Part shown: positions 4,029 through 60,112 of the stretch, piece by piece
Numbering within the stretch: position 1 is the stretch's first letter
How the letters are laid out: each line of letters opens with the position of its first letter
Assembly (NCBI RefSeq): GCF_036365525.1
Contig: NC_090380.1
Coordinates: forward strand, 96,743,942 to 96,807,941
DNA length: 64,000 bases
Reading direction: 5' to 3'
DNA from: Heterodontus francisci
Lineage: Eukaryota
The notes under the pieces: model-generated
Database searches by the model: none
Told to the model about the DNA's origin: nothing
The model's input: only the letters and a program-made list of their open reading frames with translations
Made by a program: the position numbers and the translations under genes

Positions 4029-4663
4029 TGTAGTGTTTGATTGATCTGGGTTTGATTGTGTTAGTCTGTCCACTTATCCATGTTCACTGTGCTTGATTGC
4101 TTAAGCCTATGGGTGGAGCTTAGGAGTTTGAAACTGAAACTAAACCAGCAGGACCAGAATGTTCTACTAGAGACAGAATGTTCTGAGAAGACATTGTACT
4201 GAGATCTTCTAAGTGCTGAGTGCACCAAGGCTCCTTAGACAGCACCTTCCAAACCCACGACCTCTACCACCTAGAAGGACAAGGGCAGCAAATGCATGGG
4301 AACACTATGACCTGCAAGTTCCCCTCCAAGCCACAGACCATCCTGACTTGGAATTATATCACCTTTCCTTCACAGTTGTTGGGTCAAAATCCTGGAACTC
4401 CCTTCCTAGCAGCACTTTGGGTGTACCTACCCCATATGGACTACAGCGGTTCAAAAAGGCAGCTCACCCCCACCTTTTCAAGGGCAATTAGGGATGGGCA
4501 ATAAATGCTGGCCTAGCCAGCGATGTCCACATCCCATGAATGAATAAAAAAAATTCAAGTGCTACAAATAAAATAGTTGGTGATTTAATACAAGTGTGAT
4601 ATCTGCATTGCTCTGAGATCAATCAGATATATAAATAGCCAGCAACCCAGCGTAAACATAACA
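4029..4663 (+). repeat. 5' LTR, interrupted at ~4220-4556 by a LINE 3' fragment
   Basis: Aligns with 6752-7053 except for the inserted block. Confidence 0.88.
4220..4556 (+). mobile_element. 3' fragment of the tRNA-headed LINE family (see 25630-28903)
   Basis: ORF 4213-4491 (APRLLRQHLPNPRPLPPRRTRAANAWEH...KGN*) matches ORF 25688-26110; same tail GGGCAATTAGGGATGGGCAATAAATGCTGG...CCCATGAATGAATAAAA. Confidence 0.92.
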
Positions 4664-5088: not shown

Positions 5089-5457
5089 GGAGATGGTGGC
5101 ATAGTGGTAATGTCACTAGTCCAGCCATCCAGCTGCCTAGGCTAATACACAGGGGACATGTTTTCAAATCCCACGACAGCAACTGGAGAAATTTAAATTC
5201 AATCCATAAATCTGGAATTAAAAACTAGTTTAATGGTGACCATGGAAGCATTGCCAATTATTATAAAAACTCATCTGGTTCACTAATGTCTTTTAGGGAA
5301 AGAAATCTGCCATCCTTACCTGGTCTGGCCTACATGTGACTCCAAACCCACAGCAATGTGGTTGACTCTTAACTGCCTTCAGTGGGCAATTAGGGATGGG
5401 CAATAAACGCTGGTCTAGCCAGTGTTGCCCACATCCCATGAATGAATTTCAAAAAAA
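5089..5457 (+). mobile_element. tRNA-derived SINE made of the head and tail of the LINE at 25630-28903
   Basis: A box TGGCATAGTGG at ~5097-5107 and degenerate B box TTTTCAAATCCC; 5089-5380 matches the reverse complement of ~28610-28903 and 5384-5450 matches the LINE tail. Confidence 0.9.
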
Positions 5458-9504: not shown

Positions 9505-11210
9505 CTTTTTTCTTTTCTTTCTTTTTGGGCCTCCTTATCTCGAGAGACAATGGATACGCGCCTGGAGGTGGTCAGTGGTTTGTGAAGCAGCGCCTGGAGT
9601 GGCTATAAAGGCCAATTCTGGAGTGACAGGCTCTTCCACAGGTGCTGCAGAGAAATTTGTTTGTTGGGGCTGTTGCACAGTTGGCTCTCCCCTTGCGCCT
9701 CTGTCTTTTTTCCTGCCAACTACTAAGTCTCTTCGACTCGCCACAATTTAGCCCTGTCTTTATGGCTGCCCGCCAGCTCTGGCGAATGCTGGCAACTGAC
9801 TCCCACGACTTGTGATCAATGTCACACGATTTCATGTCGCGTTTGCAGACGTCTTTATAACGGAGACATGGACGGCCGGTGGGTCTGATACCAGTGGCGA
9901 GCTCGCTGTACAATGTGTCTTTGGGGATCCTGCCATCTTCCATGCGGCTCACATGGTCAAGCCATCTCAAGCGCCGCTGACTCAGTAGTGTGTATAAGCT
10001 GGGGATGTTGGCCGCTTCAAGGACTTCTGTGTTGGAGATATAGTCCTGCCACCTGATGCCAAGTATTCTCCGAAGGCAGCGAAGATGGAATGAATTGAGA
10101 CGTCGCTCTTGGCTGGCATACGTTGTCCAGGCCTCGCTGCCGTAGAGCAAGGTACTGAGGACACAGGCCTGATACACTCGGACTTTTGTGTTCCGTGTCA
10201 GTGCGCCATTTTCCCACACTCTCTTGGCCAGTCTGAACATAGCAGTGGAAGCCTTACCCATGCGCTTGTTGATTTCTGCATCTAGAGACAGGTTACTGGT
10301 GATAGTTGAGCCTAGGTAGGTGAACTCTTGAACCACTTCCAGAGCGTGGTCGCCAATATTGATGGATGGAGCATTTCTGACATCCTGCCCCATGATGTTC
10401 GTTTTCTTGAGGCTGATGGTTAGGCCAAATTCATTGCAGGCAGACGCAAACCTGTCGATGAGACTCTGCAGGCATTCTTCAGTGTGAGATGTTAAAGCAG
10501 CATCGTCAGCAAAGAGGAGTTCTCTGATGAGGACTTTCCGTACTTTGGACTTCGCTCTTAGACGGGCAAGGTTGAACAACCTGCCCCCTGATCTTGTGTG
10601 GAGGAAAATTCCTTCTTCAGAGGATTTGAACGCATGTGAAAGCAGCAGGGAGAAGAAAATCCCAAAAAGTGTGGGTGCGAGAACACAGCCCTGTTTCACA
10701 CCACTCAGGATAGGAAAGGGCTCTGATGAGGAGCCACCATGTTGAATTGTGCCTTTCATATTGTCATGGAATGAGGTGATGATACTTAGTAGCTTTGGTG
10801 GACATCCGATCTTTTCTAGTAGTCTGAAGAGACCACGTCTGCTGACGAGGTCAAAGGCTTTGGTGAGATCAATGAAAGCAATGTAGAGGGGCATCTGTTG
10901 TTCACGGCATTTCTCCTGTATCTGACGAAGGGAGAACAGCATGTCAATAGTCGATCTCTCTGCACGAAAGCCACACTGTGCCTCAGGGTAGACGCGCTCG
11001 GCCAACTTCTGGAGCCTGTTCAGAGCGACTCGAGCAAAGACTTTCCCCACTTTGCTGAGCAGGGAGATTCCACGGTAGTTGTTGCAGTCACCGCGGTCAC
11101 CTTTGTTTTTATAGAGGGTGATGATGTTGGCATCGCGCATGTCCTGGGGTACTGCTCCCTCGTCCCAGCACAGGCATAGCAGTTCATGTAGTGCTGAGAG
11201 TATAGCAGGC
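9505..11210 (-). mobile_element. RTE-clade LINE, 5'-truncated, young
   Basis: 10-bp TSD TTGGTGAGTT (9495-9504 and 11211-11220); A/G-rich tail; intact RT ORF. Confidence 0.95.
9572..11140 (-). CDS. RTE retrotransposon reverse transcriptase with C-terminal Zn-finger-like motif; endonuclease lost by truncation
   Basis: Uninterrupted 522 aa: NYRGISLLS, QCGFR, FIDLTKAFDLV, GVKQGCVLAP, LFADD, FTYLGS, LLYGSEAW, CSTCGRACHSRIGLYSH. Confidence 0.9.
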   Translation of the reverse strand: MRDANIITLYKNKGDRGDCNNYRGISLLSKVGKVFARVALNRLQKLAERVYPEAQCGFRAERSTIDMLFSLRQIQEKCREQQMPLYIAFIDLTKAFDLVSRRGLFRLLEKIGCPPKLLSIITSFHDNMKGTIQHGGSSSEPFPILSGVKQGCVLAPTLFGIFFSLLLSHAFKSSEEGIFLHTRSGGRLFNLARLRAKSKVRKVLIRELLFADDAALTSHTEECLQSLIDRFASACNEFGLTISLKKTNIMGQDVRNAPSINIGDHALEVVQEFTYLGSTITSNLSLDAEINKRMGKASTAMFRLAKRVWENGALTRNTKVRVYQACVLSTLLYGSEAWTTYASQERRLNSFHLRCLRRILGIRWQDYISNTEVLEAANIPSLYTLLSQRRLRWLDHVSRMEDGRIPKDTLYSELATGIRPTGRPCLRYKDVCKRDMKSCDIDHKSWESVASIRQSWRAAIKTGLNCGESKRLSSWQEKRQRRKGRANCATAPTNKFLCSTCGRACHSRIGLYSHSRRCFTNH

Positions 11211-11912
11211 TTGGTGAGTTACTGGCACAAATAGCATGGAAATATGGTGTTGTGCCTATAACAGATACCTGGCTCAAAGAAGGCAGGACTGGGTATTAAA
11301 TATTCCTGGATACAAGATGTTCAGGAAAGATAGGAAAGGAAGGAAAGGGGAAGGAGTGGTGGTATTGATTAAGGAGAGCATTGCAGTGATGGAGAGAGAG
11401 GATATCCCTGAGGGTTCAAGAGCAGAATCTATTTGGCTACAGCTGAGGAACAAAAAAGGTGCAATTACATGGTAGTCTATAGGCCCCCAGCTAGTGGAAA
11501 GGATGAGGAGGAACAAATTTGCAAGGAAATTACAGAGAGGTCTAAGAATTATAGAGCAGTTATAATGGGGGACTTTAATTTCTGAATATAGACTGGGATA
11601 GTAGTAATGTAAAGGGCAGAGAGGGGCAAGAGTTCCTAGAGTGTATTCAGGAAAACTTTCTACAGCAGTATGTTTCCAGTCCAATGAGAAAGGAGGCACT
11701 GCTAGACCTGTTTTTGGGAATAAGGTGGACAAAGTGGATCAAGTGTCAGGGTCAGTGATGATCGTATCATAAGGTTCAGATTAACTATGGAAAAGGACAA
11801 GGAACAAGTAAGAATAATTAACCGAGGGAAAGCCAACTTCAGTGGGGTAAGAATGGATCTGATTCAGATAAATTGGAATGGAAGGTTGGCAGGCAAAATG
11901 GTAACTGAACAA

Positions 11913-16699: not shown

Positions 16700-19105
16700 C
16701 TTTGACCATGACAGGAGACTGTCTGGCAGGCCTGCCAATGCACCCAGCATCTCGGTGTGCACCCTCAGCAGCTTTCTCTTGTAGGCCACCCCAACACAGT
16801 TCTCATCTGAGTCCCCTGCAGCAGAACTTGTATGCGACCTTAACCTCCAGAGAACTGACATATAAACTATTCTTTTCCCCTGGCTTTTTCCCTGTCCTGG
16901 CTGCAGCCCACTCATGCCTGGTGACTCACCACATGCAGATCCTAACTCTGTGCTACCCTCGAAACTACATGCAATGCCAGCATCTGAAGTGGTGGCTGCA
17001 AGTGTGAGATCAAATGACGGGACCTCTGTCAGTAGTGTGGTGTTGCTTTCTCTCCTCCTCCTGGGAACACTGTGGCTGGGCAGTCTGAAAGCAAGGTTAG
17101 AAAACACGGACACATGATCAGCAACTTGCATATCATACCTTCTTTTTTCTTCTTTGGCCTCCTTATTTCGAGAGACAATGGGTAAGCACCTGGAGGTGGT
17201 CAGTGGTGTGTGGAGCAGCGCCTGGAGTAGCTATAAAGGCCAATTCTAGAGTGACAGGCTCTTCCACAGGTGCTGCATAAAAATTTGTTTGTCGGGGCTA
17301 TTTCACAGTTGGCTCTCCCCTTGCGCTTCTATCTTTTTTCCTGCCAACTGCTAAGTCTCTTCGACTCGCCACACTTTAGCCCTGCCTTTATGGCTGCCCG
17401 CCAGCTCTGGCGAATGCTGGCAACTGACTCCCACGACTTGTGATCAATGTCACAGGACTTCATGTCGCGTTTGCAGACGTCTTTAAAGCGGAGACATGGA
17501 CGGCCGGTGGGTCTGATACCAGTGGCGAGCTCGCTGTACAATGTGTCTTTGGGAATCCTGCCATCTTCCATGCGGCTCACATGGCCAAGCCATCTCAAGC
17601 GCCACTGACTCAGTAGTGTGTATAAGCTGGGGATGTTGGCCGCCTCAAGGACTTCTGTGTTGGAGATACGGTCCTGCCACCTGATGCCAAGTATTCTCCG
17701 GAGGCAGCTAAGATGGAATGAATTGAGACGTCGCTCTTGGCTGACATACGTTGTCCAGGCCTCGCTGCTGTAGAGCAAGGTACTGAGGACACAGGCTTGA
17801 TACACTCGGACTTTTGTGTTCCGTGTCAGTGCGCCATTTTCCCACACTCTCTTGGCCAGTCTGGACATAGCAGTGGAAGCCTTTCCCATGCGCTTGTTGA
17901 TTTCTGCATCCAGAGACAGGTTACTGGTGATAGTTGAGCCTAGGTAGGTGAACACTTGAATCACTTCCAGAGCGTGGTCGCCAATATTGATGGATGGAGC
18001 ATTTCTGACGTCCTGTCCCATGATGTTCATTTTCTTGAGGCTGATGGTTGGGCCAAATTCGTTGCAGGCAGCCGCAAACCTGTCGATGAGACTCTGCCGA
18101 CACTCTTCAGTGTGAGATGTTAAAGCAGCATTGTCAGCAAAGAGGAGTTCCCTGATGAGGACTTACCATACTTTGGACTTCGCTCTTAGATGGGCAAGGT
18201 TGAACAACCTGCCCCCAGATCTTGTGTGGAGGAAAATTCCTTCTTCTGAAGACTTGAACGCATGTGAGAGCAGCAGGGAGAAAAAAATCCCAAAAAGTGT
18301 GGGTGCGAGAACACAGCCCTGTTTCACGCCACTCAGGGTCGGAAAGGGGTCTGATGAGGTGCCGATATGTTGAATTGTGCCTTTCATATTGTCATGGTAT
18401 GAGGTGATGATACTTAGTAGCTTTGGTGGACATCCAATCTTTTCTAGTAGTCTGAAGAGACCACGTCTGCTGACGAGGTCAAAGGCTTTGGTGAGATCTA
18501 TGAAAGCAATGTAGAGGGGCATCTGGTGTTCGCGGCATTTCTCCTGTATCTGACAAAGGGAGAACAGCATGTCAATGGTCGATCTCTCTGCTCGAAAGCC
18601 ACACTGTGCCTCAGGGTAGATGCGCTCGGCCAGCTTCTGGAGCCTGTTTAAAGAGACTCGAGCAAAGACTTTCCCCACTATGCTGAGCAGGGAGATTCCA
18701 CGGTAGTTGTTGCAGTCACCGCGGTCACCTTTGTTTTTATAGAGGGTGATGATATTGGCATCGCGCATGTCCTGAGGTACTGCTCCCTCATCCCAGCACA
18801 GGCATAGCAGTTCATGTGGTACTGAGAGTCTGAAAGCAAGGTTAGAAAACATGGACACATGATCAGCAACTTGCATATCATACATGTATCAGGATAAGGG
18901 TGAGCTGGAAGTTGAGAAAGGGCATAAGGGGCATACTGTTATCTTCAACGTTCTCAGGGATGCCGGATGCCATGGGCTCTGTCGCAGCTGGCCCTAGGAT
19001 GTGGAGAACTATCTCCTCTGTAGGGCTCAGGAGATGCGGGCATCTTTGTCCCCCATCAGTTCAGCTCTACTCCCAGTGATTATGGGCCACCTTCTGCCAT
19101 AGCTG
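16700..19105 (-). pseudogene. Harbinger-associated Myb/SANT-like gene, downstream exons (decayed; RTE inserted in an intron)
   Basis: KVAHN...LSPTEEIVLHILGPAATEPMASG (~19093-18937, then GTATG donor) and TTGCTTTCAG acceptor before a low-complexity exon (~17085-16700); assignment by recall of shark Harbinger ORFs. Confidence 0.5.
17139..18826 (-). mobile_element. RTE-clade LINE, 5'-truncated, disrupted; same family as 9505-11210
   Basis: ORFs 18163-18885 and 17329-18030 match the 522-aa ORF with frameshifts and stops; 57-bp TSD at 17082-17138 and 18827-18883. Confidence 0.95.
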
Positions 19106-20499: not shown

Positions 20500-21351
20500 T
20501 CAGTATTTATATGGCACCCTGTACATCAAAATACCTCAAAGTATGTGTGAAGTTCTTTCAAAGTGCTTCATGCAAGGAATTCGATTATGCAGTACCCTGG
20601 TTAGTGCGATGTTGACAAACATGGCAACTAATCGACACAATGCCCTATAACTGAATGACCAGTCAATATGCTCTTAAATTGCAATTGGTTAAGGGAGTCA
20701 TATTGGCTAGGACAACAACAACAATAATCTGTATTTCTTGAGTGCCTTTAACATAGTGAAATGTCCCATGGCACATCACAGGAGCATTATGAAACATTGA
20801 GCCACATAAGAAGATATTAGGCCAGATTGCCTAAAGCTTGTTCTAAGAGGTAGATTTTAAGGAGCATCTTAAAGGAGAGAGAGGTAGAAAGGTTTAAGGA
20901 GGGAATTCCAGAGTTTAGGGCCTTGGCAACAGAAGGCTGATGATTGAAGTCTCCAATGATGGAGCAATTAAAATAGGGATGCCCAAGATGCCAGAATTGC
21001 AGGAGCGCAGATTTCTCGGAGAGTTGTAGGGCTGGAGAAGATTACAGGGATAGGGAGGACCAAGGCCATGGAGGAATTTGAATACAAGCATGACAATTTT
21101 AAAATTCTGGAGAACTCACTTCTCTTCTTTGAATAGTGCCATGGGAACATCAAGATTCACTTAAATCACCTGAACAGATAGGCAGGACTTGGTTTTATGA
21201 CAACCAAAGGATAGCACCTTTGAATATGTAGCGTATTCTAAGTGCAGCACTGAAGTGTCAGTCTAGATTGCAAACTTAAGCTTTGTTGTGGAGCTTCAAA
21301 TACAACCTTCTGATCCAACGGTTAGCATATGTCAGCAGAGTGAAACTGATA
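20500..21351 (-). mobile_element. SacSINE1/DeuSINE-like ancient SINE, split by an L2 fragment
   Basis: ...TATTGGCTAGGACA (to ~20714) resumes as CTGGAGAACTC...AATAGTGCCATGGG (from ~21107); homologous to 39863-40230. Confidence 0.65.
20715..21106 (-). mobile_element. L2-clade LINE 3' fragment
   Basis: (TTG)n tail; GGAATTCCCTCCTTAAACC (WNSLP-like) and NFKIVML-type C-terminal motifs on the - strand. Confidence 0.65.
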
Positions 21352-21381: not shown

Positions 21382-24300
21382 TAGAATCATAGAATGGTTA
21401 CAGCAGAGAAGGAGGCCATCCAAGCCATCATTTCCATGCCAGCTCTCTGCAAAAGCAACTCAGCTAATCCCTCTTCCCTGCCCTTTCCCCGTAGTCTTGC
21501 AATTTCTTTTTCTCTTCAGGTGTTTATCCAATTCCATTTTGAAAGCCCTGTTTGTACCTGTCTGCACCACACTCTCAGGCAATGCATTCCAGGTCGTAAC
21601 CACTCGCTGCATACAAAAGTTTTTTCTCATGTTGCTGGTGCTTCTTTTGCCACTCACCTGAAAGCTGTGTCCTCTGGTTCTTGACTCTTCTGCCAATGGG
21701 ATCATTTCTCTCTAGCTATTCTGTCCTGACCCTTCATGATTCTGAACACTTCTATCAAATTTCCTCTCAACCTTCTTTTCTCTAAGGAGAACAACTCCAG
21801 CTTCTCCAATCTATCCATGTTACCTGGAACCATTCTCGTAAATCTTTTCTGCACCCTCTCTAATGCCTTCACATTCTTCCTAAAGTGCGGTGCCCAGAAT
21901 TGGACATAATACTCCAGTTGAGGCTGAACCAGAGTTTTATAAAGGTTCATTACAACTTCCTTGTTTTTGTACTCTATGTCTCTATTCATAAAGCCCGGGA
22001 TCCTATATGCCTTTTTAACTGCTTTCTCAATCTGCCCTGCCATCTTCAACGATTTGTATACATATACTGCCAGGTCTTTCTCCTTTGCACCCCATTTAGA
22101 ATTGTGACCTTTATTTTATATTGCCTCTCCCCGTTCTTCCTATCAAAATGAATCACTTCACCCTCTTCTCTGCATTAAATTTCGTCTGCCATCTTTCTGC
22201 CCATTCCACCAGCTTGTCTATGTCCCCTTGAAGTTTATCACTGTACTCCTCACAGTTCACAATAGTTCCACGTTTTGTGTCTTCTGCAAATTTTGAAATC
22301 GTGCCCTGTACACCCAAATCTAGGTCATTAATATATATCAAGAAAAGCAATAGTCCTAGTCCGACAACTAGGGAAACACACTGTGTACCTTCCTCCAGTC
22401 TGAGAAACAATTGTTCACCAGTACTTTATTTCCTGTCACTCAGCTAACTTCGTATCCATGCTCCCACTGTCCCTTTTATTCCAAGGGCTTCAACTTTGCG
22501 CAAGTCCATTATGTGGCACTTAATTAAATGCCTTTTGGAAGTCCATACACACATCAACCACATCACCCTCATCAACCCTCTCTGTTAACTCATCATAAAA
22601 CTCAATCGAGTTAGTTAAACACGATTTGCCTTCAGCAAATCCATGCTGGCTTTACCTATTTGATTCAAACTTGTCGAAGTGAATGTTAATTTTGCCCCGA
22701 TAATCTTCTTTAAAAGCTTTCTCACCGTTGATGTTAAACTGAATGGCCTACAGTTGCTGGGTTAATCCTTACACCCTTTTTTGAACAAGGGTGTAATATT
22801 TGCTTTTCTCCAGCCCTCTTACACCACTCCCATATCTAAGGAAGATTGGAAGATTATATCCAGTACCTCTGCAATTTCCACCCTTACTTCCCTCAGCATT
22901 CTTGGATGCATCCCATCCGATCCTGATGACTTATCTACTTTAAGTACTGCCAGCCTTTCTAATGCCTCCTATTTATCAATTTTTAGCCCATCCAGTATCT
23001 TAACTGCCTCCTCTTTCACTGTGACTTTGGCAGCATCTTCTTCCTCGGTAAAGACTGGTGCAAAGTTTTTATTTAGTACCTCAGGCATGCTCTTTGCCTC
23101 CATGCATAAATCCCCTTTTTGTGCCCTAATCAGCCCCACCTTGTCTCTTTCTACCCTTTTACTATTTATATGCATATGGAAGACATTTGGATTCACAGGA
23201 ACAGAGGAAATAGGAACAGGAGTAGGCCATTCGGCCCCTCGAGCCTGCTCTGCTATTCAACTAGATTATGGCTGATTTTCTACCTCAACACGACGGAGGT
23301 GGAGGGGCGACATGATAGAGATTTACAAAGTTATGAGCGGCATGGACAGAGTGGATAGTCAAAAGAACAAAAAAGAACAAAGAACAGTACAGCACAGGAA
23401 CAGGCCATTCGGCCCTCCAAGCCTGCGCCGATCTTGATGCCTGCCTAAACTAACACCTTCTGCACTTCCGGGGCCCATATCCCTCTATTCCCTTCCTATT
23501 CATATATTTGTCAAGATGTCGCTTATGCGTCGCTATCGTATCTGCTTCCACCACCACCCCTGGCAGCAGGTTCCAGGCACTCACCACCCTCTGTGTAAAA
23601 AACTTGCCTCGCACATCCCCTCTAAACTTTGCCCCTCGCACCTTAAACCTATGTCCCCTAGTAACTGACTCTTCCACCCTGGGAAAAGCTTCTGACTATC
23701 CACTCTGTCCATGCCGCTCATAACTTTGTAAACCTCTATCATGTCGCCCCTCCACCTCCGTCGTTCCAGTGAAAACAATCTGAGTTCTTCCAACCTCTCC
23801 TCATAGCTAATGCCCTCCAGACCAGGCAACATCCTGGTAAACCTCCTCTGTACCCTCTCCAAAGCCTCCACGTCCTTCTGGTAGTGTGGCGACCAGAATT
23901 GCACGCAATATTCTAAATGTGGCCTAACTAATTTCTCCGCCCAAGTCTCCAACCGATCTATATCCTGCTGTACCCTCTGACACTCCTCGTCATTATCCGC
24001 AACTCCACCAACCTTTGTGTCGTCCGCAAACTTACTAATCAGACCAGCTACATTTTCCTCCAAATCATTTATATATACTACAAACAGCAAAGGTCCCAGC
24101 ACTGCTCCCTGCGGAACACCACTAGTCACATCCCTCCATTCAGAAAAATACCCATCCACTGTTACCCTTTGTCTTCTATGACCGAGCCAGTTCTCCATCC
24201 ATCTTGTCAGCTCACCTCTGATCCCGTGTGACTTCACCTTTTGCACCAGTCTGCCATGCAGGACCTTGTCAAAGGCTTTACTAAAGTCCATATAGACAAC

Positions 24301-25615
24301 ATCCACCGCCCTTCCCTCATCAATCATCTTCGTCACTTCCTCAAAAAACTCAGTCAAATTAGTAAGACACAACCTCCCCTTCACAAAACCATGCTGTCTC
24401 TCGCTAATAAGTTTGTTTGTTTCCAAATGGGAGTAAATCCTGTCCCAAATAATCCTCTCTAATAGTTTCCCTACCACTGACGTAAGGCTCACCGGCCTAT
24501 AATTTCCTGGATTATCCTTGCCACCCTTCTTAAACAAAGGCACAACATTGGCTATTCTCCAGTCCTCTGGGACCTCACCTGTAGCCAATGAGGATGCAAA
24601 GATTTCTGTCAAGGCCCCAGCAATTTCTTCCCTTGCCTCCCTCAGTATTCTAGGGTAGATCCCATCAGGCCCTGGGGACTTATCTACCTTAATGCTTTGC
24701 AAGACACCCAACACCTCCTCCTTTTTGATAATGAGATGACTGAGACTATGTGCACTCCCTTCCCTAGGCTCATCATCCACCAAGTCCTTCTCTTTGGTGA
24801 CTACTGATGCAAAGTACTCATTTAGTACCTCACCCATTTCCTCTGGCTCCTCACATAGTTTCCCATCTCTGTCCTTGAGTGGGCCAACCCTTTCCCTGGT
24901 TACCCTCTTGCTCTTTATGTATGTATAAAAAGCCTTGGCATTTTCCTTAATCCTGTTTGCCAATGACTTTTCATTACCCCTTTTAGCCCTCCTAACTCCT
25001 TGCTACTTATAGAATCTTTTACAGTCCGTTTTTATGTTTCTCACTAGTTTACTTTCATATTCTATTTTCTCTTTCTTTGTCAGTTTCTTGGTCCTCCTTT
25101 GCTGAATTCTAAAATGCTCCCAGTTCTGAGGCTTATCACTTTTTTGGCAACTTTATAAGCCTCTTCCTTTGATCTAATATAATGTTTAACTTCGCTTGTT
25201 AGCTGTCGTTGGATCAAATTTCCTGTTGGGCTTTTGTTCCTCAAATGAATGCAAATTTGTTGTAAACATCCTTTATCTATGTCTTTTTATCTTTTATCTT
25301 AGTTGCCAGTCTTTTCACATACTCGCTCTTTGTCTCTCTTCCCCTCTGAATTTTCTATATTCTGCCTGGTTCTCACTTGTATTGTCAAGCTGACATCTGC
25401 CATTTGCCCCCTTTTTCTGTTTCATCTAACTCTCTATCTCTCTTGTCATCCAGGGACCTGTGGCTTTGGGTGGCCGACCTTCACTCCTCATGGGAATGTA
25501 CCTCGACTGTTACCAAAATATCTCCCTTTTAAAGGCAGCCCATTGTTTGGTTACAGTTTTCCTGGCCAATCTTCGATTCCAATTTACCTGGGACAGATCC
25601 CTTCTCACCCCACTT
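21382..25615 (-). mobile_element. Nest of three CR1 LINEs (outer 21382-23195 plus ~25300-25615; middle ~23195-23290 plus ~25005-25290; inner 23362-25004)
   Basis: CR1 ORF2 pieces in ORFs 21460-21705, 21702-22049, 22153-22410, 22969-23196 and 23581-24963; three distinct CR1 tails. Confidence 0.85.
23581..24963 (-). pseudogene. CR1 ORF2 reverse transcriptase, 460 aa open, with an in-frame internal deletion
   Basis: KSPGPDG, NYRPVSL, QHGF, DFSKAFDKV, GVPQGAVLGP, KFADD; WAEK joins directly to LVRPHLEY at ~23931. Confidence 0.9.
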
Positions 25616-25687
25616 AAATTTTTAAAAAATATTATTCATTCATGGGATGTGGGCATCGCTGGCCAGGCCAGCATTTATTGCCCATTC

Positions 25688-28586
25688 CTAATTGCCCTTG
25701 AGAAGGTGGTGGTGAGCTGCCTTCTTGAACCGCTGCAGTCCATTTTGGGTAGGTATACCCACAGTGCTGTTAGGAAGGGAGTTCCAGGACTTTGACCCAG
25801 CAACAGTGAAGGAATGACGATATAGTTCCAAGTCAGGATGGTGTGTGACTTGGAGGGGAACTTGCAGGTGGTGGTGTTCCCATGTATTTGCTGCCCTTGT
25901 CCTTCTAGTTGGTAGAGGTCGCGGGTTTGGAAGGTGCTGTCTAAGGAGCCTTGGTGCATTGCTGCAGTGCATCTTGTAGATGGTACACACTGCTGCCACT
26001 GTGCGTTGGTGGTGGAGGGAGTAAATGTTTGTAGATGGGGTGCCAATCAGGTGGGCTGCTTTGTCTTGGATGGTGTTGAGCTTCTTGAGTGTTGTTGGAG
26101 CTGCACCCATTCAGGCAAGTGGAGAGTATTTCAGCACACTCCTGACTTGTGCCTTGCAGATGGTGGACAGGCTTTGGGGAGTCAGGAGGTGAGTTACTCG
26201 CCTCAGGATTCCTAGTCTCTGACCTGCTCTTGTAGCCACGGTATTTATATGGCTAGTCCAGTTCAGTTTCTGGTCAATGGTAGCCCCTAGGATGTTGATA
26301 GTGGGGGATTCAGCGATGGTAATGCCATTGTATGTCAAGGGAAGATGGTTAGATTCTCTCTTGTTGGAGATGGTCATTGCCTGGCACTTGTGTGGCGCAA
26401 ATGTTACTTGCCACTTATCAGCCCAAGCCTGGATATTGTCAGGTCTTGCTGCATTTCTACATGGACTGCTTCAGTATCTGAGGAGTCACGAATGGTGCTG
26501 AACATTGTGCAATCATCAGTGATCATCCCCACTTCTGACCTTATGATTGAAGGAAGGTCATTGATGAAGCAGCTGAAGATGGTTGGGCCTAGGACACTAC
26601 CCTGAGGAACTCCTGCAGTGATGTTCTGGAGCTCAGATGATTGACCTCCAACAACCACAACCATCTTCCTTTGTGCTAGGTATGCCTCCAGCCAGCGGAG
26701 GGTTTTCCCCCTGATTTCCATTGACTCCAGTTTTGCTAGGGCTCCTTGATGCCATACTCGGTCAAATGCTGCCTTGATGTCAAGGGCAGTCACTCTCACC
26801 GCACCTCTTGAGTTCAGCTCTTTTGTCCATGTTTGAACCAAGGCTGTAATGAGGTCAGGAGCTGAGTGGCCCTGGCGGAACCCAAACTGAGCGTCACTGA
26901 GCAGGTTATTGCTAAGCAAGTGTCGCTTGATGGCACTGTTGATGACACCTTCCATCACTTTACTGATGATTGAGAGTAGGCTGATGGGGCGGTAATTGGG
27001 GGGGTTGGACTTGTCCTGCTTTCTGTGTACAGGACATACCTGGGCAATTTTCCACATTGCAGGGTAGATGCTAATGTTCTGGCTGTACTGGAACAGCTTG
27101 GCTTGGGGCGTGGCAAGTTCTGGAGCACAGGTCTTCAGTACTATTGCTGGAATATTGTCAGAGCCCATAGCTTTTGCGGTATCCAGTGCCTTCAGTCGTT
27201 TCTTGATATCACGCGGAGTGAATCGAATTGGCTGAAGTCTGGCATTTGTAATGCTGGGGACTTCAGGAGGAGGCCGAGATGGATCATCAACTCGGCATTT
27301 CTGGCTGAAGATTGTTGCAAATGCTTCAGCCTTATCTTTCGCACTTATGTGCTGGGCTCTCCCATCATTGAGGATGGGGATATTTGTGGAGCCACCTCCT
27401 CCAGTTAGTTGTTTAATTGTCCACCACCATTCATGGCTGGATGTGGCAGGACTGCAGAGCTTAGATCTGATCCGTTGGTTATGGGATCGCTTAGCTCTGT
27501 CTATCGCATGCTGCTTACGCAGTTTGGCACGCAGATAGTCCTGTGTTGTAGTTTCATCAGGTTGACACCTCATTTTGAGGTATGCCTGGTGCTGCTCCTG
27601 GCATGCCCTCCTGCACTCTTCATTGAACCAGGGTTGGTCTCCTGGCTTGATGGTAATGGTAGAGTGTGGGATATGCCGGGCCATAAGGTTACAGATTGTG
27701 GTTGAGTACAATTCTGCTTCTGCTAATGGCCCACAGCGCCTCATGGATGCCCAGTTTTGCATTGCGAGATCTGTTTGAAATCTATCCCATTTAGCACGGT
27801 GACAGTGCCACACAACATGGTGGACGGTATCCTCAATGTGAAGGTGGGACTTCGCCTCTACAAGGACTGTGCGGTGGTCACTCCTACCAATACTATCATG
27901 GACAGATGCATCTGCGGCAGGCAGATTGGTGAGGACGAGGTCAAGTATGTTTTCCCCTCTTGTTGGTTCCCCCACCACCTGCCGCATACCCAGTCTAGCA
28001 GATAGGCCCTTTAGGACTCAGCCAGCTTGGTCAGTAGTGGTGCTACCGAGCCACTCTTGGTGATGGACATTGAAGTTCCCCCACCCAGAGTACATTTTGT
28101 GTCCTCGCCATCCTCAGTGCTTCCTCCAAGTGCTGTTCAACATGGAGGAGTACTGAGTCATCAGCTGAGGGAGGGCGGTAGGTGGTAATCAGCAGGAGGT
28201 TTCCTTGTCCATGTTTGATCTGATGCCATGAGACTTCATGGAGTCCGGAGTCAATGTTGAGGACTCCCAAGGCAACTCCCTCCCTACTGTATACCACTGT
28301 GCCACCACCTCTGGTGGTCTGTTCAGTGGGACAGGACATACCCGGGGATGGTGATGGTAGTGTCTGGGACATTGTCTGTAGGATATGATTCCGTGAGTAT
28401 GACTATGTCAGGCTGTTGCTTGACTAGTCTGTGGGACAGCTCTCCCAATTTTGGCACAAGCCCCCAGGTGTTAGTAAGGAGGACTTTGCAGGGTCGACAG
28501 GGCTGAGTTTGCCGTTGTCGTTTCCAGTGCCGGGTGGTCCGTCCGGTTTCATTCCTTTTTATTGACTTTGTTGTGGTTAGATACAA
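25688..28586 (-). pseudogene. APE endonuclease-reverse transcriptase ORF, broken by a few frameshifts and stops
   Basis: Collinear ORFs 28323-28586, 28043-28372, 26404-27987, 26111-26377 and 25688-26110; FADD changed to ITDD. Confidence 0.9.
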
Positions 28587-28819
28587 CTGAGTGGCTTGCT
28601 AGGCCATTTCAGAGGGCATGTAAGAGTCAACCACATGGCTGTGGGTCTGGAGTCACATGTAGGCCAGACCAGGTAAGGACAGCAGATTTCCTTCCCTATA
28701 GGACATTAGTGAACCAGATGGGTTTTTGCAACAATCGACAATGGTTTCATAGCCATCATTAGACTAGCTTTTAATTCCAGATTTATTAATTGAATTCAAA
28801 TTCCACCTTCAGCTGTGGT

Positions 28820-28895
28820 GGAATTTGAACCCATGTCCCCGGAGCAATACCCTGGGTTTCTGGGTTTCTAGTCCATTGACAATACCACTATGCCT
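28820..28895 (-). promoter_or_regulatory. Type 2 Pol III internal promoter (A box and B box)
   Basis: AGGCATAGTGG at 28895-28885 (TGGCATAGTGG in the SINE copy) and GGTTCAAATTCC at 28831-28820. Confidence 0.75.
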
Positions 28896-28914
28896 CCTCC
28901 TCCCCCTCCTCCTC

Positions 28915-30496: not shown

Positions 30497-31464
30497 TGTG
30501 ACGGAAACCACACCTGCCAGATGGAATTATATTAATTTAATCATATGGAACATTATTTGACTGGATATTGAACATAATTTGTTTTCAAAAGACCACAGAA
30601 CAGTGGCTGAAAATATGACTGCACATTTGCACTCTAAAAGGTAGTGGCATGGAGAGACAATGGGAGTACTCCCAGATTCAATTAGCCAGGTGGGTTTTGT
30701 CAATAGTGATGATTAAAAGACATTGAGGCTCATTGACTGTGTAAGAACCAGCATTCTGCACCTCACCCGCCCCACCCCACGACACACACACATCCCCACT
30801 GAGAGTGTCTGGTAAGCTTGAAGGCATCCACAAACCTCACAGGAGAGGTTGGTTCAAACAGGGAGCTAGTCACCTGCTGGCCAATCGAGAGTTAATTGAA
30901 TTGTGCTCACAGAACAGTTGTTGGAAGAGACTACAATAGAACTTTAAGAGGAGAGCACTCCCTCTCTCTGTCTCTCTCTCTCACGCAAAGTTCCAGGGAC
31001 CCACGGAAGTTAATTAAGCCTCAAGACAGAAGACCAGCGAAACAAGTTTGAAAGTGTGCACTGGGTCCCAGTGAGAACTACGAGACTTAACTGCAATCAA
31101 AGACTTTACATACAACCCAAAACCAGTAGCTGAATTCCATCTACTACTTCAAACCTTCACCCTTTAATTCTTTCTTCTCCTCTGTATCTATTTGTGTGTG
31201 TGTTTATCACTTATGCATGCTGGGGTGGTCGCATCTTGTATTTTTTTTAGTAGTTTTAACTGAGTTAAAGTTTTAAGGTTAATAAACTTACACCTTTCTT
31301 GTTTAAACCTAAGAAAGCCTGTTTGGTTGATTCCTTTACAATTACAATTAGAGAGCAGTGAACAAGGACTCACTGGGGGGAAGCTAAAACACTGTGTTTT
31401 AAAAGTTAAACCAGGAAAAGGTCGAAAGGAGAGCCCTGAACCCCTTCCTCACCTGGTCTTAACA
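30497..31464 (+). mobile_element. Solo LTR (~970 bp)
   Basis: TGTGACGG ... GGTCTTAACA termini; AATAAA at 31281; partial second copy nearby; TSD not evident. Confidence 0.65.
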
Positions 31465-31773: not shown

Positions 31774-32216
31774 CAAACCAGGAAAAGGCTGAAAGGGGAG
31801 CCCTAGACCCCTCCCTGGTCGTAACACACTCATTGGGGCCCAGTGCACACGTCCAAACTTGTTTCGCTGGTCTTCTGTCTTGAGGATTAAATTACTTCCG
31901 TGGGTCCCTGGAACTTTGCGTGAGAGAGAGAGACAGAGAGAGGGAGTGCTCTCTTCTTGAAGTTCTATTGCAGTCTCTTCCAACAACTGTTCTGTGAGCA
32001 CAATTCAATTAACGCTTGATTGGCCAGCAGGTGACTAGCTCCTTGTTTGAACCAGCCTCTCCTGTGAGGTTTGTGGATGCCTCCAAGCTTACCAGACACT
32101 CTCAGTGGGGCTGTGGGGTCGGCGGGGTGCGGGGTGGGGTGATGGAATGTTGGTTCTTACACAGTCAATGAGTCTCAATCTCTCTTGATCATCACTATTG
32201 ACAAAACCCACCTGGC
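31774..32216. mobile_element. Rearranged second copy of the same LTR
   Basis: 31774-31826 repeats the LTR 3' end directly; 31829-32216 is the reverse complement of 30685-31074. Confidence 0.8.
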
Positions 32217-32694: not shown

Positions 32695-32850
32695 TAAAAT
32701 TTGTTTCATGGGATGTGGGCATCGCTGGCAAGGCCAACATTTATTGCCCATCCATAATTGCCCTTGAGAAGGTGATGGTGAGCTGCTTCTTGAACCGCTG
32801 CAGTTCATGAGATGTAGGTACACCCACAGTGCTGTTAGGGAGGGAGTACC
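32695..32850 (-). mobile_element. 3' tail fragment of the tRNA-headed LINE family
   Basis: Matches 25636-25785. Confidence 0.85.
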
Positions 32851-33124
32851 TGGTAAAGAAACAAGCAGATTGGGTTCTGGACCCTGAAGAAAATAAGGGA
32901 GTTGTGGCCCTGAAATATCAGTCAGAGGGGCATGCACATGTGGCTACTGTAGCAGGAGGTGACTGAATCAGCAGACAGACAACCAAAGCAAAATATCATG
33001 AAAGCAAGTCAGTTTAGTAACTGAATAGTGTTGATTTATTTATTTCACTTGATTGGGCTAGTGTCCCCCAAATGAGGTTACCAGCACTTACCATTTGACT
33101 AAATAAATATTCCAGGAATACAAT

Positions 33125-53319: not shown

Positions 53320-53595
53320 TCGTAAGAGTGGTTAAACTAAGGCCCTATCTGTCCTCTCTGATGGACATAGAAGATCCCATGGCATTATTCCAAAGTAGAG
53401 CAATGGAGATCTCCCAGTGTCCTGGCCAATATTCACCCCTCAACCAACTTCAGCAAAATAGGTGATCTGGTCATTTATCAGATTGCTGATGATAGGAATG
53501 TACCACATTTCCATACATTACAACAATGGCTACACTTCAAAAGCACTTTGGGACTTCTGAGGTTGTAAAAGGCACTTTGTAAATTCAATTCATTA
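53320..53595 (+). mobile_element. SacSINE1/DeuSINE-like 3' half
   Basis: AGATCCCATGGCATTATT...GTGTCCTGGCCAATATT...CTGGTCATT. Confidence 0.7.
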
Positions 53596-59324: not shown

Positions 59325-60112
59325 TTTTTTATTCTTTCATGGGATGTGGGCAACACTGGCAAGCCTAGTATTTGTTGCCCATCCCTAATTGCCCTTGAGA
59401 AGGTGGTGGTGAGCTGCCTTCTTGAACCGCTGCAGAACCGATACTCCCACAGTACTGTTAGGAAGGGAGTTCCAGGATTTAGATCCAGCGACAATGAAGG
59501 AATGGCGATGTAGTTCCAAGTCAGGATGGCATGTGACTTGGAGGGGAACTTGCAGCAGGTGGTGTTCCCATGCATCTGCTGGCCTAGTCCTTCGAGGTGG
59601 AAAAGGTTGCAGGTTTGGAAGGTGCTGTCAAAAGAGGTAAGGTGAGTTGCTGCAGTGCATCTTGTATATGGTACACACTGCTGCATTGTGAGTGAATGTT
59701 GAAGGTGGTGGATGGGATGCCGATCAAGCGGGCTGCTTTGACCTGGACGATATCGAGCTGCCTGAGTGTTGTTGGAGTCACATTCATCCAGGCAAGTAGA
59801 GAGTATTCCATCACACTCCCGATTTGTGCCTTGTAGATGGTGGACAGGCTTTGGGGAGACAGGAGGTGAGTTACTCGCCGCAGAATTCCTAGCCTCTGAC
59901 CTGTTCTTGTAGCCATGGTATTTATGTGGCTGGTCCAGTTCAGTTTCTGGTCAATATTAACCTCCAGGATGTTGATAGCAGGGGATTCAGTGATGGTAAT
60001 GCTGTTGAATGTCAAGAGGAGATGGTTAGTTCTCTCTTATTGGCGGTCATTGCCTGGCACTGTGTGACGTGAATGTTACTTGCCAGTTATCAGCCCAAGT
60101 CTGAATGTTGTC
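59325..60112 (-). mobile_element. Older 5'-truncated copy of the tRNA-headed LINE family
   Basis: ORF 59584-60015 matches ORF 26111-26377; same tail. Confidence 0.9.

Follow-up and report, generated by a model that had tools for sequence, protein, structure and literature searches.

The window analyzed here, a stretch of 64,000 nucleotides (nt) from Heterodontus francisci (assembly GCF_036365525.1, contig NC_090380.1, positions 96,743,942 to 96,807,941, forward strand), contains on its minus strand a dead, full-length copy of Zenon, a long interspersed nuclear element (LINE) of elasmobranchs, that opens with a transfer RNA (tRNA)-like head. Because the element combines a tRNA-type promoter head with a lack of the T-runs that stop RNA polymerase III (Pol III), it is likely to be a coding element made by Pol III. 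The comparisons presented below make it probable, in our judgement, that elasmobranch Zenon is an autonomous protein-coding LINE transcribed end to end by Pol III. The fuller reading, under which the shark and ray Zenon would be a natural Pol III coding gene endowed with a tRNA promoter, purged of terminators, translated from an uncapped RNA through an AUG-less frame of 975 codons, and parent of its own short interspersed nuclear element (SINE), we hold to be evenly balanced between true and false. The window copy is laid out as follows, with L166 denoting a natural copy from elsewhere in the genome.

25620..28906, minus strand: dead full-length tRNA-headed elasmobranch Zenon (CR1-group) non-long terminal repeat retrotransposon, about 3.29 kb, delimited by alignment to family copies
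28815..28906, minus strand: tRNA-like head with a long variable-arm hairpin, from the Rfam tRNA-clan match on copy L166
28885..28895, minus strand: A box, with one mismatch in the window copy, family form TGGCGTAGTGG, from copy comparison
28821..28831, minus strand: B box, decayed in the window copy, family form GGTTCGAATCC, from copy comparison
28608..28814, minus strand: 5' body, common to the LINE and its partner SINE, with many short upstream open reading frames (ORFs), not Deu
28599..28607, minus strand: mini-ORF AUG-GCC-UAG, in frame with and directly 5' of the long frame
25688..28598, minus strand: single frame for apurinic/apyrimidinic endonuclease (APE) and reverse transcriptase (RT), with five indels and two stops in the window copy
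27870..28460, minus strand: APE endonuclease region (approximate), from PF03372 and PF14529 on L166 and motif positions
26290..27030, minus strand: RT region (approximate), from PF00078 on L166 (E=1e-37)
25632..25687, minus strand: 3' untranslated region (UTR) with AATAAA at 25679, common to the LINE and its partner SINE
25619..25631, minus strand: short A-tail, in part decayed to T6 (25624-25629)

The window copy differs by 3.5% from the majority sequence of an alignment of 40 copies. Its death, already called in a first-pass annotation made from the letters of the window, is borne out by indels at approximately 28531, 28326, 28317, 28077 and 26440, by in-frame TGA codons at 28020 and 26113, and by the change of the catalytic FADD to ITDD (26523-26512). 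The same annotation had placed the A box at 28895-28885 and the B box from 28831, and both positions hold, with the B box spanning 28831-28821. It had also remarked that no SINE tail, target site duplication (TSD) or ORF1 comes between head and ORF; the window copy has no TSD, and neither it nor the family has an ORF1 between head and frame. Its description of a head running directly into the ORF stands insofar as no ORF1 intervenes, but approximately 210 nt of non-tRNA 5' body separate the two.

Distribution of the tRNA-like head

A search of the 6.0 Gb genome with the body/frame junction as query returned 4142 candidates, 40 of which were scored. The 59 copies compared comprise the 39 other scored loci and 20 of the 47 loci found with a distant protein, and the tRNA part was absent from both queries. 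The head is carried by 48 of these 59 copies: 47 start no more than 20 nt from its first base, and in the other an insertion interrupts it. The remaining 11 are 5'-truncated, starting at positions 118-436, and show no alternative or common upstream sequence among them. The tRNA-headed APE-RT family therefore is family-wide in its head, and the question raised in the first-pass annotation, whether full-length copies share it, is answered without any other 5' end having been encountered. A one-off chimera was ruled out by these counts together with the presence of the head in all seven published elasmobranch Zenon consensuses.

The family numbers thousands of copies in the H. francisci genome. 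Its majority line is about 3.29 kb long with one frame of 975 codons. Copies of the first set mostly diverge from this line by 4-6% and those of the second by 2-4%, and attempts to separate an older, distinct subfamily yielded none. L166 retains an unbroken frame of 972 codons with APE and RT Pfam domains, although some motifs have drifted. The element is also present in public runs of at least five organisms, with contigs spanning the body-frame junction in four runs. Only five of 42 copies showed a TSD of at least 7 nt. Two deviating arrangements were observed: at L167 (G000:C1:83081000-83085100) a young full-length copy has landed in an older family member and is accompanied by a duplication of 7 nt, and in L040 and L048 head positions ~100-183 are deleted.

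The A/B box consensus was used as the yardstick for the head. The A box is exact in 26 of 51 copies and the B box in 22, a further 18 copies showing CpG-decay variants of the latter; for both boxes, CpG decay accounts for most of the copies that are not exact. Rfam assigned the head of L166 to the tRNA clan (tRNA-Sec model, 19.7 bits, E=0.23, below gathering threshold) and gave no credible tRNA match on the window copy, and ARAGORN called a tRNA in the head at relaxed threshold only. A genome search for the parent tRNA turned up 8 distinct genes, all for Thr or Lys, and none was diagnostic. The first 320 nt of the element are predicted to fold extensively, into a consensus that is not a cloverleaf and in which none of 93 pairs showed a compensatory change (eight close copies, low power). 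No similarity to the head or body was detected in 80 metagenome loci.

The 5' body is possibly the original 5' UTR of Zenon. Its identification as a SacSINE1/Deu domain was rejected, given that it has no match to the published Deu alignment (supplement of PMC7245038) and that Deu motifs match elsewhere in the window and not in the Zenon body. The SacSINE1/DeuSINEs described from sharks (PMC5499810) are likewise tRNA-headed and occur in the same host group; Zenon differs from them in having a body without a Deu domain, a distinction drawn with the Deu alignment. Degraded Deu-like SINE remnants were observed in the window at 53340-53580 (plus strand) and, more weakly, at 20757, 21136 and 34961; these remnants have no similarity to the Zenon head, body or tail.

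Judged by sequence, the family is the same as the elasmobranch Zenon LINE of a 2026 catalogue (PMC13343379), which is reported there from five elasmobranchs as >84% identical mutually, without ORF1 and with a poly-A tail. The catalogued CarCar, HypSab, RhiTyp and ScyCan Zenon-1 and SquAca Zenon-1 to -3 belong to the same family (APE and RT, A-tail, no ORF1), and the Zenon-1 entries, at 3244-3314 nt, have the same length as the window element. The published consensuses (PMC13343379 supplement) were compared by eye over their first 400 nt only. All seven shark and ray consensuses, from five species, open with the same head and are near-identical over this stretch; the A box fits in 7/7 and the B box in 6/7, the spacer varies, and no run of four Ts (T4) occurs in any of them. 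The two hagfish and one coelacanth Zenons, in contrast, have unrelated headless 5' ends, all three with runs of at least four Ts in the same interval. The main text of PMC13343379 contains no mention of tRNA, promoter, Pol III, polymerase III or start codon, and in the available parts of that source the head, the avoidance of T-runs, the missing AUG and the partner SINE go undescribed. The whale-shark preprint, in its available text, names only a CR1-Zenon-like LINE. The first-pass annotation knew of no described example; the LINE was already catalogued as Zenon, although none of the papers searched remarks on its head.

The protein agrees with this placement, since APE and RT in one frame without ORF1 is the trait of Zenon (CR1 group). 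The best long relatives are APE-RT proteins of ~950-1050 amino acids with up to 43% identity. A quick tree, which holds no named Zenon protein, puts the family in a 53-row clade (Shimodaira-Hasegawa-like approximate likelihood ratio test, SH-aLRT, 100) that includes shrimp-linked, amphioxus and beetle proteins and lies apart from the CR1 and RTE elements of the same genome. One relative inside this clade, L070, is headless and A-tailed, has an AUG start and contains 20 T4. The 5' region of L070 bears a tandem motif of ~35 nt (391-425 and 449-484) that by eye resembles a 5' stretch of the hagfish EptBur_Zenon-2, so that a conserved RNA element at the 5' end of Zenon is possible; Rfam gave no match on the L070 5' region.

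Depletion of T-runs in the sense strand

The counts given in the first-pass annotation were reproduced on recount: the sense strand from 28903 to 25630 has no T4, seven runs of three Ts (T3) and 14 runs of four As, the neighbouring CR1 (23450-24960) has seven T4, and the RTE frame in the window (9572-11218) has three T4 in 1644 nt. The interval 29347-25629 is the longest T4-free stretch on either strand of the window (3718 nt, the next being 1432 nt, against a background of ~6 T4 per kb). The probability of zero T4 was 0.01 under a mononucleotide null, 0.139 under a dinucleotide null, 0.08-0.09 under shuffling of the element's own codons and 0.19 under a CpG-aware null. Hence, zero T4 as a significant result on its own is unsupported under the last three. 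The comparison with synonymous-codon shuffles that the first-pass annotation had proposed consequently divides, with the absence of T4 failing it and a wider depletion of TTT and terminators passing.

As CpG decay concentrates T-ending codons before G, a stratified codon null was used for this wider depletion. Under this CpG-aware null, the frame has 4 T3 versus 10.5 expected (P=0.0008), no TTTT or TVTTT versus 3.2 expected (P=0.014) and 76 TT versus 89.7 expected, with A-runs at normal levels and no deficit on the antisense strand. All four TTT of the frame are isolated Phe codons, and codon-junction TTT number 0 versus 9.9 (0 of 5000 unstratified shuffles), with the A, C and G codon-junction triplets at normal levels. 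The loss of TTT as a by-product of CpG decay was discarded, since stratification lowers the expectation from 12.7 to 10.5 and the deficit stays. The frame is T-poor (19.7%), and its Phe content is the lowest of 121 proteins, at ~1.6 standard deviations (SD) below the GC-adjusted expectation, which is suggestive only.

TTTT and TVTTT are reported as the shortest working vertebrate terminators, and TTT as a minor one (PMC8466645). The majority line has no TTTT, and its frame no TVTTT; an internal sense terminator, foreign to a Pol III unit, is thus missing from the frame, and it is missing from the window copy as well. T4 runs gained after insertion amount to 20 in 179 kb of copies, six of them at one spot, and 42 of 59 copies have none. 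In a separate observation, TGTTT, TATTT or TCTTT, and not T4, stands directly 3' of high-scoring tRNA-Thr(TGT) and some tRNA-Lys(TTT) genes (L270-L299), a hint that TVTTT is used as a terminator in H. francisci.

The CR1 and RTE majority lines are frameshifted, and natural long frames served as controls. The RTE L220 of the same genome, which is similar in composition to the Zenon frame (T 21.5%, GC 51%), has 6 T4, 27 T3 and 9 terminators in 2895 nt, and the CR1 frames have 14-15 terminators. Neither family shows depletion of T3 or terminators, the RTE giving mild deficits of TT and of four Ts in five positions in the unstratified test (P=0.016). A broader comparison drew 61 related ORFs from the 80 metagenome loci, leaving out 19 without a clean frame of at least 300 codons. 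The observed to expected ratio of T3 was 1.03 +/- 0.10 in these ORFs (minimum 0.76) versus 0.38 in the Zenon frame. Avoidance, which the first-pass annotation had suggested comparing in headless relatives, was not seen in the 61 related ORFs, most of them distant and AT-rich, or in the headless Zenons compared. Taken with the head as a family trait, a sense-only avoidance of T-runs that the RTE and CR1 of the same genome do not share is what that annotation had predicted at the level of sequence.

Partner SINE, 3' ends and other repeats

The head and 3' end of Zenon also occur joined to each other in a SINE family, in which the first 295 nt of the LINE (93% identity) are fused to its last 72 nt (96%). 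The genome search returned 5123 candidates for this partner SINE, and 30 loci were examined. One copy, together with three further remains of the LINE, lies in the window.

5089..5447, plus strand: copy of the partner SINE, with the LINE's head and body fused straight onto its 3' tail
4221..4552, plus strand: 5'-truncated copy of the Zenon LINE, 92%
59329..60112, minus strand: older 5'-truncated copy of the Zenon LINE, 83%
32705..32853, minus strand: 3' fragment of the Zenon LINE, 89%

The heads of SINE and LINE are 93% identical over 294 nt within the same genome, and similar head-to-tail joints were found in contigs of other organisms. Several different junctions between head and tail were observed (~positions 295 and 320), and these varied junctions and the deletions in L040 and L048 suggest repeated, independent births of SINEs from the Zenon LINE. 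The plan of the SINE at 5089-5447 is that of the bipartite SINEs of Kojima 2018 (PMC5786205), made of a tRNA head, a LINE 5' part and a LINE 3' part. In the available part of that source, the head sits only on deleted non-coding forms and RTE and Vingi are the sole LINE donors found for SINE bodies, whereas here the autonomous LINE bears the head. Lepidopteran Zenon and the internally deleted Persaeus offer a further likeness, with a single ORF in ~3.3 kb and non-autonomous derivatives made of 5' and 3' parts (PMC6740152); unlike shark Zenon, Persaeus, the carrier of the lepidopteran Zenon 5' UTR, is described in the available part of the same source as having no tRNA homology or Pol III promoter. 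In bivalves, Zenon is reported as the tail partner of several SINEs (PMC11481361). The Zenon element itself has the tRNA-like head with A and B boxes of a SINE2 but not its short, non-coding and non-autonomous nature, being 3.3 kb long with a 975-codon frame; it is a member of Zenon and not a SINE, though predicted to behave like one at its promoter.

The A-tail measures ~8-11 nt in most of 72 ends examined, and some tails have decayed to T-runs. In 15 of the 72 ends a T4 occurs no farther than 15 nt away; these tails fall at scattered places on a copy tree that is star-like, and the T6 of the window copy is accordingly attributed to decay of the A-tail. The first-pass annotation had put this T6 just past the tail; it lies inside the decayed A-tail and not in the flank. 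An inherited terminator at this place was ruled out, T-runs replacing As at approximately constant tail length in addition to their scatter, a decay like that reported for B2 tails (PMC8466645). The trait of T+ SINEs, an inherited TTTT or TVTTT between AATAAA and tail, is lacking. The first downstream T4 lies at a median distance of 66 nt in the 62 ends where one was found.

Other repeats observed in the window include two copies of a young RTE family (9572-11218 and 17329-18888, minus strand; 96-97% to other genomic copies), whose natural frame in L220 has 965 codons, and a copy of a young CR1 family (23450-25002, minus strand; 96-97% to other genomic copies) among many CR1 fragments. An inverted repeat pair at 30766-31075 and 31829-32138 (310 nt, 92% complementary, 753 nt apart) is possibly a non-autonomous DNA transposon.

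Proposed Pol III transcription and its alternatives

The proposed mechanism would begin with the binding of TFIIIC to the A and B boxes. Pol III would start ~11 nt upstream of the A box, read through 3.3 kb and terminate at whichever T-run came first, be it in the A-tail or in flanking DNA. Ribosomes would reach the frame of this uncapped RNA without scanning, with internal entry or re-initiation past AUG-GCC-UAG as the likeliest routes. The encoded protein would copy its own RNA, with target-primed reverse transcription beginning at the templated A-tract, and would mobilise the head-and-tail SINE as well. Terminators would have been purged through codon and codon-pair choice. A single gain of the head, in the common ancestor of sharks and rays, is probable, and would have come about by template switching or recombination with a bipartite SINE.

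Translation is the weakest step of this scheme. No Met precedes codon 285 in L166, nor codons ~285-290 in the family majority. Ten AUGs occur in the first 355 nt, upstream of the endonuclease, and all of them open short frames and none the long frame; in none of 48 copies is the last AUG in frame. The mini-ORF AUG-GCC-UAG is in register with the long frame in 44 of 46 scorable copies. Re-initiation or internal entry at the AUG-less frame is our guess. Pol III RNA is reported to be translatable in reporters, in which the removal of TTTT raised output (PMC8223928).

Several results weigh against Pol III transcription. The match of the head to tRNA is weak (E=0.23), the B box of the stingray consensus is imperfect, and, since the A and B boxes double as the D- and T-loops of a tRNA, their conservation could be structural. 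The majority line and L166 each have one TATTT in the head, though the window copy does not. The absence of T4 is not significant by itself once composition is controlled (P=0.08-0.19), and since TT and TTT, weak terminators in themselves (PMC8466645), are depleted too, some other pressure against U-runs may be at work. More distant and largely AT-rich sequences served as headless controls in place of the nearest relatives (~42% identity), which were compared as protein. The mini-ORF is in register in only three of the six published consensuses that retain it, as judged by eye, which makes read-through doubtful. Finally, RNA contigs cover the element and carry no start-site, strand or cap information.

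An ordinary LINE driven by Pol II, from a promoter in the 5' body or by host read-through, with the head as a passenger and U-runs avoided for another reason (cryptic splice acceptors, premature 3' processing, RNA decay and innate sensing are candidate causes), is in our view unlikely, although it deserves serious consideration. The AATAAA and A-tail of the element would fit it, as would a depletion that takes in TT and TTT beyond what termination requires, the frequent swapping of LINE 5' ends (10.1101/2022.11.04.512097) and the fact that coding RNA is not normally a Pol III product (PMC8223928). However, the RTE and CR1 elements of the same genome, presumed to be Pol II-transcribed, lack the depletion of T3 and terminators, the headless, A-tailed L070 carries its 20 T4 within the same clade, and in sharks and a ray alike the boxes depart little from consensus. 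It is improbable that the head acts as RNA instead, its tRNA-like fold defining the 5' end from a host co-transcript or recruiting ribosomes. The lack of an in-frame AUG behind ten upstream AUGs, the extensive predicted folding of the first 320 nt and the coincidence of the boxes with D- and T-loops would all suit such a role; the loss of sense T-runs over 2.9 kb of coding sequence is left unexplained by it, and the consensus fold offers neither a cloverleaf nor, at the low power of eight close copies, any compensatory change among its 93 pairs. We give very little credence to the head being a relic kept by repeated recombination with the commoner SINE, with the low T content inherited as composition and under no present selection. 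The 93% identity of SINE and LINE heads over 294 nt agrees with it, as do the T content of 19.7% in the frame and a Phe content that, lowest of 121 proteins, is only ~1.6 SD below the GC-adjusted expectation; yet the depletion persists with the element's own codons and CpG decay held fixed, and copies gain T4 after insertion while the majority line has none.

To our knowledge, Pol III-headed mobile elements (SINEs, Cassandra, Helenus/Ajax) are all non-autonomous. The literature searched, which did not include subscription journals, Repbase or Dfam, yielded no account of an autonomous LINE that has a tRNA head or is driven by Pol III. A parallel is offered by R2, which is co-transcribed by Pol I and released by a ribozyme as uncapped RNA, has no promoter of its own and encodes a restriction-like endonuclease. 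Zenon is predicted to resemble it as a LINE on a polymerase other than Pol II whose uncapped RNA is translated without a normal AUG, and it differs in having the head and an APE.

The standard classification tells LINEs from SINEs by the polymerase they use and by whether they encode protein, and coding RNA is not regarded as a normal product of Pol III (PMC8223928). If the Pol III reading of Zenon is true, the element would be an abundant vertebrate exception across sharks and rays, in which long Pol III transcription is coupled with cap- and AUG-independent translation. The bipartite-origin model (PMC5786205) would gain from it a direct intermediate between LINE and SINE, and a compact, self-promoting, single-ORF retrotransposon of this kind would be of interest to builders of gene-insertion tools.

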